Source of the DNA: a virus
DNA length: 64,000 nucleotides
Strand: one strand, 5' to 3'
Virus record (IMG/VR): IMGVR_UViG_3300013794_000014
Location: 64,001 to 128,000 of that record
This document shows positions 12,001 through 15,000 of this stretch, in pieces. Made by a program: the position numbers. Each line of letters starts with the position of its first letter. The stretch's first letter is position 1.

Positions 12001-15000
12001 CAATAATATACCGTTAGCGTTTAGTTATGCAGTTCTGTTATACAAAACGGCACAAACGTACTTTGAAGAGTCAGATACAAATGAAGTAGTGTTACTAAAA
12101 GTAAAAAGGGATACATATGGTCAAAGTTAGATTACAAATTCCAGGATTCTACGGAGTTTTAACACAACATTTTGATAATCCAGATATCGTTTACTTGCCT
12201 TCTTATACTTCTAACATCTTTTCAACAGGACAAACGGTTTTTGTAACACGCTATCCAGACGTTGACAAAAATGCCATATTACCATTAAAAGTCCAATTTC
12301 ATGAATATCCGGTTGTTAGTATTCACATCAGTAAGTTACCATACTTAGATGCTGATATCGATGGAGATTGTGTAGCGGTTTGGTTTGGTGACAATAATTG
12401 GGAAATTGACGACATTGAAGAAAAACCCTTTGAACCATTGAAATCACTGAATTTTAGTGATATTAAGAAACGTATCAAGAAAATTTCTGAATCTATGTTA
12501 ATGGATTTATTAAATCTTAAACTCGATTTTAATCAGTATATAGAAGACGTACAATTTCGGTTTCATGTCATTGACAAAGTCCCCATGTTAACTGGCACAT
12601 TGTTTAAGCGTTTTGCTCTACAACATTATGGTTTATTCTTCTACGATTTAAAAGATAACATTAGATTTGTACTAAATGCAGAATGGAAATATGAACCGTC
12701 AAATGCATTCTTTCAAACAACAAAAAACTATGATATTTGGATAAGAGCAATACAAATAATTTGTAATCGACTAAACAATATATGTCTTAAGTTCAAACAT
12801 CCAGTTAATTCCATTGATGATTTACGTAAGGTTTTGTCATTCTTGAAAGCATGTAATATTGATACAAAATGGTTTGAAAACGAATTTGGTGTTTCACATG
12901 ATCCCAGATATACGTCAATTGAGGAGTTTACTTTCTGGTTCACTAAAGACATTGAAAAAGACGCCTTCGAAGTCTTTAAAACAGGAATCAAAACGTCTAA
13001 CAATGGTTAGACCCATTACACATATTGCCACTTCACCCTATAGACAGTTCATTGGACTTAAATGTGTAGAAGGATCTATAAGTCAAGACTATTCAATGTC
13101 AAAATATGTATTGGCAAAACCAGAATGGCCACATGTATGGTTTATCGGTGGTTTAAAAGTTAGAGGTGTCAATCTGATAACGGCTATTTGTGATCATCCA
13201 TATGTTCAAAATGATGCTTTTGTACTTACTAACCATAAGCCAATTGAAATCATTGATACATCTAATGAGACGTCATTCATGTTAGGTGTAGGAGACAAGA
13301 TTGGAAACCTACATGGACAAAAAGGTGTAATTAACAATGTCTTTGACAAAAACCGTTTTGAAATTATTCCGGAAACAATTGTCAGTGATATTTGGGAAAC
13401 AAAAGCAACTACATTTAAGTATGTCGACTGTCTAATGTCTTTGACATCTGTCATTGAAAGAGGTGCATTTGGACAATTTGTAGAGTGTTCATATTCATAC
13501 GGTAAACCAATTGACGTTGAGATTGACGTACCATTTCAACCACTACAAACGGGTTACATTTATGACAACGAACTAGATGAATACTATATGGCAATATTTG
13601 GTATCTGTCATTATGTTATCATTGATAAATTTGCCAAAGATATGCAAACAGGTAAAGTGTCAATTGACTATTTTGGACTATGTAACATATTGGCAAGAAA
13701 ACGCTATGATTTACTGAAACATTACTTGAACTTAGGTGACATTGATGTCGACGTTAACAAAAGATGAAATAAGAATGTTAATAATGGAAGAACCTAAACT
13801 ACTTCTGAAAACTGGTAAGGTATTGAATACATGGCGTCTAATTATGGGACAAAGTATAATCCCTACATTTCATATCAAATACATGGAAGCAATAACAAAT
13901 AGCGGTGAATATGTAACGCTTTACGACTTTGAAGGATTAACAGGTTATGATGAAGATGGCACACCTTACGATATAACAGATATATCAAGAATTGTTGACA
14001 TTGATGTCCATATATACTTTGAACGTAGTTATCTGTCAAATTTATCCGCCATTGAAGATGTAGTCTATTATCCACCTGAAAGTCGTTATGTGACATTAGC
14101 GTACTTAATGGATATTGAAACTGAACCACTGTATATCAATTCTTTACCAATGTTTGATCATACAAAAATTAAGTATAATTTTCGTGGAAATTTAGTTATT
14201 GGTATTGACAATTATCCAAAAATATTGCAAAAAATCAATTATATGGGTTGTAATTTGAATCCAGACTATAATGGCATGGTTAGATTTGCTTACGAAGTTG
14301 AAGTACCTTATACAATGTTTTACAACAGAAAAGTCCATAATGAGTTAGTTGATATAATACCAGGAGTTCCATTGGTTCAACATACATTAACGGTTACTCT
14401 TGTATAAGTCTTCTTCACATCCTAGAACTTTACAAATGTAATTGACAAACTTTTTAACGGGCTTAAAATAATAAAATTGTGTATGTTTTAATTTCCGTAA
14501 ATCGTAAAGTACAATGGTTGTCAGTAATGTTATTCCTGCATAATCAGCTAAATATTCAAAATTTGGTAATCCAATGTATGTTCCAATTGCACATAATGTC
14601 GAATATAACATCCAGAATACAACAGACCAACCTATCCAACGAACAGTCGCCTTTATTGCACTTTTAATGAAATGTTCACGCTCATATGGCAACGGAACTG
14701 GAGCAGAATTTAAGTAAATTAAGAAATCAATAAACAGGCCTAAAACTACAAGTATGGTGGCAAAGATAAGTATATTGACATCGAGAAATTTTACAATGAG
14801 CGCAAGTGCCAAGGGGACTTTTATACCATTAAGGAGATTAAGTAGACACATGGTGATTCACCTATGATACTATATCAATGTAGTAAATGTGCAAAGACGT
14901 TTGCGGCTACAAATCCTAAACATTGTCCATACTGCCAATATCAACACCTCCAAATTTTATCACATTACAGAGTACAGGTATTTAATACATCAGATGTTAA

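Follow-up and report, generated by a model that had tools for sequence, protein, structure and literature searches.

Viruses that encode their own two-barrel RNA polymerases (RNAPs) are already known, and so is the arrangement in which a virion RNAP is accompanied by a non-virion one. In the Thermus phage P23-45, the tape-measure-fused virion RNAP gp96 (5002 amino acids, aa) works with the non-virion RNAP gp64 (PMC10770324). For the non-virion RNAPs of the jumbo phages phiKZ and AR9, homologues of beta and of beta' come from distinct small genes (PMC7598289, PMC5449584), and YonO (SPbeta, B. subtilis), together with the clade of QDE-1 and crAss phi14:2 gp66, is a reduced two-barrel enzyme that lacks the cellular subunit set (PMC5467207, PMC10770324). 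Here we describe a pair of overlapping genes, ORF1 and ORF2 (ORF, open reading frame), found in a stretch of 64,000 nucleotides (the window) that corresponds to bases 64001-128000 of the 141,059-bp virus record IMGVR_UViG_3300013794_000014. With a probability of roughly 60%, we read this pair as a miniature two-barrel RNAP of a probably archaeal virus. The initial annotation of the window had proposed a very small two-subunit polymerase at this place and had noted that most characterised archaeal viruses rely on the RNAP of the host; the reviews agree on the latter point, reporting no RNAPs encoded by such viruses (PMC5569661; 10.1101/2021.07.29.453957).

Both genes were recovered on the plus strand at 12117-13767, adjacent and overlapping as the annotation had them. 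ORF1 (12117..13010; 297 aa) is beta'-like, with a double-psi beta-barrel (DPBB) of the A type at residues 5-100, followed up to residue 297 by a conserved domain, predicted to be mostly helical. ORF2 (13003..13767; ATG at 13003; 254 aa) is beta-like, with a DPBB-B barrel that is devoid of the flap/wall insert, and overlaps ORF1 by 8 nt, in ATGGTTAG. The barrel motifs previously quoted for the two genes are all present, in canonical order, and are kept in distant relatives. Those of ORF1, R45-Y46-P47 and D78-A-D80-I-D82-G-D84, are located within its first 90 residues and do not change in relatives down to 31% identity; the putative Mg-binding Asp triad D80-I-D82-G-D84 (codons at 12354..12368, plus strand) is invariant in 7/7 family members. 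Those of ORF2 are N57..A61..D71-A72, G97-D98-K99-x7-K107, D142..R153..G157-Q158..E161 and I198-F-G200..Y204. Their residues are unchanged in relatives at 37-43% identity, and GDK-x7-K, R..GQ..E and G..H are invariant, the basic pair G97-D98-K99...K107 (codons at 13291..13323, plus strand) being the same in 10 sequences.

Similarity searches led to the expected parts of RNAPs. The sole Pfam match of each protein is sub-threshold, to Rpb1 domain 2 at residues 36-91 of ORF1 and to Rpb2 domain 6 at residues 93-127 of ORF2, and a six-frame search of the genome agrees with both. When family profiles were compared with PDB sequences, the top match of ORF1 was the catalytic segment of the largest subunit of plant Pol V, with DIDGD placed on the ADFDGD loop; for ORF2, residues 822-865 of Thermus beta and 951-1033 of Rpb2 came first. 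The PHROG 'RNA polymerase beta subunit' matches ORF2 at 1e-5. Among 1.84 billion representatives, the ORF2 profile found three further small relatives (206-288 aa) and reached, with E 4.3e-5, a 767-aa protein that carries Pfam Rpb2_6 and Rpb2_3. In hhalign, the ORF2 family aligned with this protein over ORF2 residues 91-212 (probability 96.7%, E 3.5e-10), and its GDK-x7-K aligned with GDKLAGRHGNK of a true Rpb2_6 protein. Two other proteins from the representative search, P0017 and P0019, are repeat proteins and not RNAPs, and were discarded.

The fold of the ORF1 barrel agrees with these matches. AlphaFold2 modelled residues 1-100 with a predicted local distance difference test (pLDDT) of 75-92, and the leading Foldseek matches of the model are almost all largest subunits of RNAPs (best E 4e-5), with N-domain chains of Cdc48/p97 also among them. 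VIA-align superposed ORF1 on the active-site barrel of Rpb1/Rpc1 with Z 13.5 and a root-mean-square deviation (rmsd) of 1.9 A over 92 residues. In a wide search that did not depend on Foldseek, eukaryotic, archaeal and poxviral RNAPs ranked first, with Z 12.6 for Rpo1N of S. solfataricus (rmsd 2.3, 96 aligned). The values for other RNAPs were Z 10.1 for bacterial beta', 9.8-9.9 for P74-26 gp62 and P23-45 gp96, 8.6-8.8 for the beta' fragments of AR9 and phiKZ, and 8.2 for QDE-1. We had also considered a DNA polymerase of the PolD type, but put this reading aside, as the matches in sequence and in fold all lead to RNAP subunits.

Co-folding of ORF1 with ORF2 produced ipSAE values of 0.89, 0.84 and 0.89 (the best of 3 controls was 0.00), with partner pLDDT of 81-88 and at least 74% of contacts shared between runs. 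The mark used was reached in calibration by 58/80 solved complexes and 2/110 mismatched pairs, a rough guide here as our own alignments were supplied. The best-supported contacts join ORF1 residues 14-17 and 79-83, the latter being the Asp loop, to ORF2 residues 69-72 (Q-N-D-A), 96-99 (V-G-D-K) and 107-111. An Asp loop facing segments of the NDA and GDK types is the arrangement seen in cellular RNAPs. The heterodimer model did not show what had been named as evidence against the proposal, namely an Asp triad and a Lys pair that fail to converge. The pair thus appears to combine, in silico, the features of the DPBB RNAP superfamily, namely a beta'-type barrel with a DxDxD loop (ORF1), a beta-type barrel with K-x7-K (ORF2) and a predicted active centre where the two barrels meet; the co-fold result itself would indicate likeness to RNAPs, which is short of proof of binding. 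As regards the two active-site barrels that had been claimed, Foldseek, VIA-align (Z 13.5), hhalign and the co-fold all favour one beta'-like and one beta-like barrel.

Several modules of larger RNAPs appear to be lacking. ORF1 begins at its barrel and therefore has no N-terminal clamp before it. In ORF2, 24 residues separate NDA (D71-A72) from GDK (G97), compared with about 55 in the proteins P0014-P0016 and, by our estimate from the PDB matches, well over 100 in cellular beta/Rpb2. The SBHM flap/wall domain of cellular beta sits inside the beta barrel (PMC7824862), and ORF2 appears not to have this hallmark of cellular-type multisubunit RNAPs. Six-frame Pfam searches of the whole genome found no Rpb1_1, and Rpb1_5 solely as a weak match in a giant ORF described below; Rpb1_2 and Rpb2_6 matched no loci beyond ORF1, ORF2 and the giant ORF. 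Divergent RNAP modules might nonetheless be hidden in the flanking ORFs. Together the two proteins have 551 aa, or about 64 kDa by our estimate, and would come close to a bare catalytic core, much as the initial annotation had supposed; an estimate for the conserved active-site region of Rpb1 plus Rpb2 exceeds 500 residues (PMC2919709). In size the pair falls well short of YonO (about 100 kDa; PMC5467207) and is also below the minimal active fragment of gp96 (residues 327-1124, about 800 residues; PMC10770324). With 297 and 254 residues, it looks like the smallest cellular-type RNAP core yet seen.

Several observations count against this interpretation. The AlphaFold2 model of ORF2 alone has a mean pLDDT of 31.6, in contrast with the 81-88 reached in the co-fold, and the helical part of ORF1 (residues 100-297) is below 50 over most of its length. 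A bridge helix and a trigger loop after the beta' barrel are shared by every RNAP in one comparison (PMC10770324); in the pair we found no Rpb1_5 match, and the Atlas provided no lead on either element. With generic DPBB domains (Cdc48-N), too, the ORF1 barrel scores Z about 11, and the assignment to RNAPs is therefore based on fold, catalytic motif and hidden Markov model (HMM) evidence together, not on fold alone. Finally, the co-fold alignments were shallow (7 and 10 rows), and its pass may partly reflect the memory that the model has of the abundant solved RNAPs.

The barrel genes are part of a cassette of four. ORF1 is preceded by a conserved ORF of 167 aa (11627..12130, plus strand, ATG at 11627) which overlaps its start by 14 nt, and ORF2 is followed by a conserved ORF of 220 aa (13745..14407, plus strand, ATG at 13745) which overlaps its end by 23 nt; both products are candidate accessory subunits. 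In the window, the cassette is located between dCTP deaminase and RNase H genes on one side and ERCC4-Hef, NrdD/NrdG, an RFC-like clamp loader and a family-B DNA polymerase (PolB) on the other. The order dCTP deaminase, RNase H, an ORF of 130-171 aa, beta', beta and an ORF of 209-223 aa was found in every relative with enough sequence, with ERCC4/Hef nuclease, NrdD, RFC-like ATPase and PolB downstream. The distant relative L012 has a fused deaminase-RNase H, and there too beta' comes before beta. A Zn-ribbon ORF at 14864 was removed from the cassette, as it is not conserved in L012.

ORF1 and ORF2 belong to a rare family. Among the 5.8 billion protein clusters searched, each protein had six or seven close relatives, of equal lengths and 67-98% identity, plus one distant lineage with 29-31% identity to ORF1 and 37-43% to ORF2. 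Protein sizes, like the cassette, are maintained in relatives with as little as about 30-45% identity. A pattern scan of IMG/VR contigs gave no relatives, and scans of genome and metagenome contigs yielded solely distant ordinary or fused RNAPs (L015, L019-L021). The ratio of nonsynonymous to synonymous substitution rates (dN/dS), calculated pairwise against the homologues of L008 and L009, was 0.10-0.11 in ORF1 and 0.05-0.08 in ORF2, compared with 0.07 for NrdD and 0.21 for dCTP deaminase of the same genomes. Both genes are under strong purifying selection. The corresponding values were 0.22-0.29 for the upstream ORF and 0.19-0.23 for the 220-aa ORF.

If the pair is indeed an RNAP, its working can be pictured as follows. 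ORF1 would give the beta'-type barrel with its Mg-binding D80-x-D82-G-D84 loop, and K99/K107, the NDA segment and R..GQ..E would belong to the beta-type barrel given by ORF2; once the chains have paired, these elements would lie opposite one another and make up one active centre. The enzyme would be reduced to the conserved catalytic core, with neither a clamp before the beta' barrel nor a flap/wall insert, and would be made from a translationally coupled four-gene cassette of the replication and nucleotide-metabolism module. Because it is located in that module and not in the virion module, we infer a non-virion enzyme, which would be made once the giant RNAP of the virion module had begun the programme and would transcribe later viral genes. 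One or both of the flanking proteins (167 and 220 aa) probably help, perhaps in template or promoter handling.

How much they help is the point on which the strongest alternative turns. According to it, the polymerase has four chains (about 940 aa) or more; ORF1 and ORF2 would be its catalytic pair, and it would also contain the flanking proteins and perhaps RNAP or transcription factors of the host. The four genes overlap or abut, Shine-Dalgarno sequences were seen solely before the first (GGTGAT, upstream of the 167-aa gene) and the last (AGGTGA, upstream of the 220-aa gene) and not before ORF1 or ORF2, there is no plus-strand terminator inside the block, and the conserved gene order points the same way. 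The 220-aa protein is syntenic and has 47 invariant columns at 26% identity, and all four genes are under purifying selection. Nevertheless, neither flanking protein has detectable similarity to any RNAP part or family (no match in Pfam, PHROGs, PDB sequences or the Atlas), and the upstream one, although syntenic in L008, L009, L010 and L011, is poorly kept in L012, where it is shorter and 23% identical. We would give this alternative nearly an even chance. Of the two-subunit RNAP in the initial annotation, what stands is that two barrel genes pair in the co-fold; that the enzyme is strictly two-subunit is not established, given the two coupled and conserved flanking genes.

A second alternative concerns function. 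The pair could be the replicative primase of the virus, a minimal two-barrel RNAP making RNA primers for PolB that the neighbouring RNase H would remove, instead of, or besides, serving gene expression. The initial annotation had called the enzyme a middle/late polymerase, and this role is not established in view of the same facts: the site beside RNase H, PolB and RFC, along with no detectable primase, would fit a replication role equally well, which also weighs against the reading as a transcriptase. The cassette is embedded among RNase H, Hef, NrdD/NrdG, RFC and PolB, with the same context in L009 and L012; a six-frame search of the complete genome at E <= 1 found no AEP primase, Prim-Pol, Toprim_4, Toprim_2 or DnaG_N; and the genome already holds another RNAP, possibly a third pair, for transcription. 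On the other hand, the search covered five Pfam families, so that a divergent primase or that of the host could serve, and siting in the replication module is also usual for early or middle RNAP genes of phages. We know of no two-barrel enzyme that is a dedicated primase. On balance, we consider a primase unlikely, yet a serious rival. Least probable by far is a catalytically dead or non-polymerase pair, that is, a DPBB-based regulator or decoy that binds, for example, host transcription factors or nucleic acid: it would suit the very small size, the undemonstrated bridge helix and trigger loop and the match of generic DPBB proteins to the barrel, but no catalytic residue of either barrel varies within the family, dN/dS is low, like that of NrdD, and the predicted interface reproduces the active-centre arrangement of RNAPs.

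The miniature RNAP would not be the only polymerase of its kind in this virus. At the end of the virion module, 12 kb from the small pair, lies a giant ORF of 6956 aa (24859..45729, minus strand) that appears to carry a second two-barrel RNAP. It matches Pfam Rpb1_2 above the cut-off (31.5-34.1 bits) and has a beta'-like region at about aa 340-400, with RYP...NLDYDGD at about residue 390, and beta-like motifs (NIEDA and K-x7-KG, at about 1655-1830, and PIDVI...R) at about 1655-1940, in addition to a weak Rpb1_5 match at about aa 2230-2370 and a Metallophos domain at about aa 4100. In both the giant ORF and the small pair, the beta'-like barrel comes first. The hhalign comparison of the small subunits with the RNAP regions of the giant ORF covered the motif cores only, with non-significant probability, so paralogy is neither shown nor excluded by these alignments. 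A further overlapping gene pair encodes proteins of 459 and 376 aa (L002:3636-5015 and 5012-6142; genome 131636-134142, outside the window) with GRHP...GGDFDGD and GSKIQNIFLQK (GSK-x7-K). It has no Pfam or PDB match, and pairwise BLASTP gave E 0.12 to ORF1 and 0.014 to ORF2; it is a possible, unverified third RNAP.

The closest parallel to this set of genes is P23-45. Both are tailed viruses of thermophiles that have a giant two-barrel protein in the virion module and a separate small non-virion RNAP, and in both the RNAPs are extremely divergent and recognisable mainly around DxDGD. Judging from the genes, a giant RNAP of the virion module and a second RNAP elsewhere, the hallmark of the P23-45 type, would both be present here. 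The differences are nonetheless considerable: gp64 has a clamp and consists of one chain, in which the beta-like barrel precedes the beta'-like one, whereas here there are two genes, beta' and then beta, of much smaller size; the host is bacterial in P23-45 and probably archaeal here; and the ORF1 barrel is closer to archaeal and eukaryotic Rpo1/Rpb1 (Z 12.6-13.5) than to gp62/gp96. The split of beta and beta' into small genes recalls the jumbo phages, and the closest neighbours of the ORF2 profile are beta proteins of the phage type, with GDK(I/L)(S/A)..H..KG (P0018, L019). The jumbo-phage enzymes, however, have four or five polypeptides, which hold most of beta/beta' and keep the SBHM flap (PMC7824862), whereas no further RNAP fragments were found here and the structural match to AR9 and phiKZ is weaker. 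Like our pair, the clade of YonO, QDE-1 and gp66 has no beta flap insert (PMC7824862), but each of its members is one chain of roughly 100 kDa or above, and the beta motifs described here are of the cellular GDK...HGQKG type.

It is with cellular RNAPs (Rpo1N/Rpo2 and beta'/beta) that the pair shares the same barrels, the same order of motifs within each barrel, an alike predicted interface and the best structural matches. It differs from them in having about one fifth of the mass, with no clamp, lobes, flap/wall or jaw apparent and no detectable Rpb1_1 or Rpb1_5. The gene order is also reversed relative to cellular operons, P23-45 gp64/gp96, L015 (fused) and L019 (split), all of which have beta first. 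L015, a contig of a Myxococcota metagenome-assembled genome (JBFYZU010000238.1), contains an open frame, high in GC and at least 1104 aa long, for a fused single-chain RNAP, in which a beta-like barrel (GYNYEDG, GDKLSNLHGNKG, GRGNFGQIAE) is followed by a beta'-like one (GADFDGD). In the literature searched, what is new is the combination of a 551-residue core in two genes, the order beta' then beta, the lack of a flap and of a detectable clamp, and the probably archaeal virus.

The virus record, which comes from a hydrothermal-vent metagenome, is complete, with direct terminal repeats. The virus is tailed, and its gene content points to a host that is probably a methanogen, most likely an archaeon of the Methanococcales type, because of a Methanocaldococcus-like tyrosyl-tRNA synthetase (TyrRS) and an archaeal histone. 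The TyrRS (311 aa, genome 6769-7704) matches that of M. jannaschii (1J1U) over its full length with E 8e-116 and 390 bits, compared with 288 bits for A. fulgidus, about 150-164 for eukaryotes and 57 for Thermus. The histone-fold ORF (genome 32183-32341) is above the Pfam cut-off, and in control genomes the family rings only in archaea. The best NCBIfam matches of two replication proteins are the RFC small-subunit and Hef-nuclease models. The G+C content, 31-37%, presumably resembles that of vent Methanococcales. Weighing on the other side are a bacterial-type HslU-like ATPase (genome 48371-49684; 240 bits, below the equivalog cut-off) and the fact that the call would rest on gene content, with no CRISPR or provirus link. 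Cultured phages gave no nucleotide match and no match to the portal and capsid candidates, and the terminase and PolB matches are too distant for naming a host. All considered, an archaeal host seems very probable for this 141-kb virus.

Other features of the genome are worth recording. Besides its own PolB, RFC-like clamp loader and RNase H, the virus has two ATP-dependent ligase-like genes and a RecJ-like DHH protein, as well as a tRNA-Arg(GCG) at L004:8358-8435. Five large proteins have combinations of DUF2341 and/or Laminin_G_3 (concanavalin-like) domains (window 203-3833, L004:15975-19140 and L006:1609-2841); their genes are on the strand of the replication module, distant from the virion module, and the proteins may be adhesins or receptor-binding proteins. 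Across window positions 12117-14407, L008 is a mosaic, with an ORF1 homologue 77% identical and ORF2 and downstream ORF homologues 98-99% identical, a pattern that co-circulating relatives may have produced by recombining close to the junction of ORF1 and ORF2. A scan for sigma-70 promoters gave no excess (62 found, 61 expected). An intergenic k-mer search revealed a few repeated motifs, none of them tied to the cassette. One of these, CGTTTACATTTA, occurs at genome 26900(-), 32844, 35840 and 128517; another, CAATATTTAA, occurs at 565, 2117, 6712, 31814 and 32083, being part of a longer repeat at 550 and 2102. Both could be promoters for one of the viral polymerases.

Taken as a whole, ORF1 and ORF2 would be the first RNAP discovered in any virus of archaea and, at 551 residues, the smallest two-barrel polymerase known in nature, one of two or three in a virus whose programme runs independently of the host, and the enzyme may also act as, or simply be, the replicative primase; this joint claim we put forward tentatively, as a little more doubtful than an even bet. 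If true, polymerases of its own in a virus of the Methanococcales type would overturn the statement of the reviews that archaeal viruses have no RNAP genes and rely wholly on the enzyme of the host (PMC5569661; 10.1101/2021.07.29.453957), and the strategy of a virion plus a non-virion RNAP, as in P23-45, would be extended to Archaea. A heterodimer of two barrels with 551 residues would set a new lower size limit for RNAPs and reveal which of their parts are indispensable, and structural biology and biotechnology would gain a small thermostable enzyme. It could further serve as an experimentally accessible model for the ancestral RNAP core in its minimal form, and would bear on models that derive RNAPs from two simple DPBB proteins.

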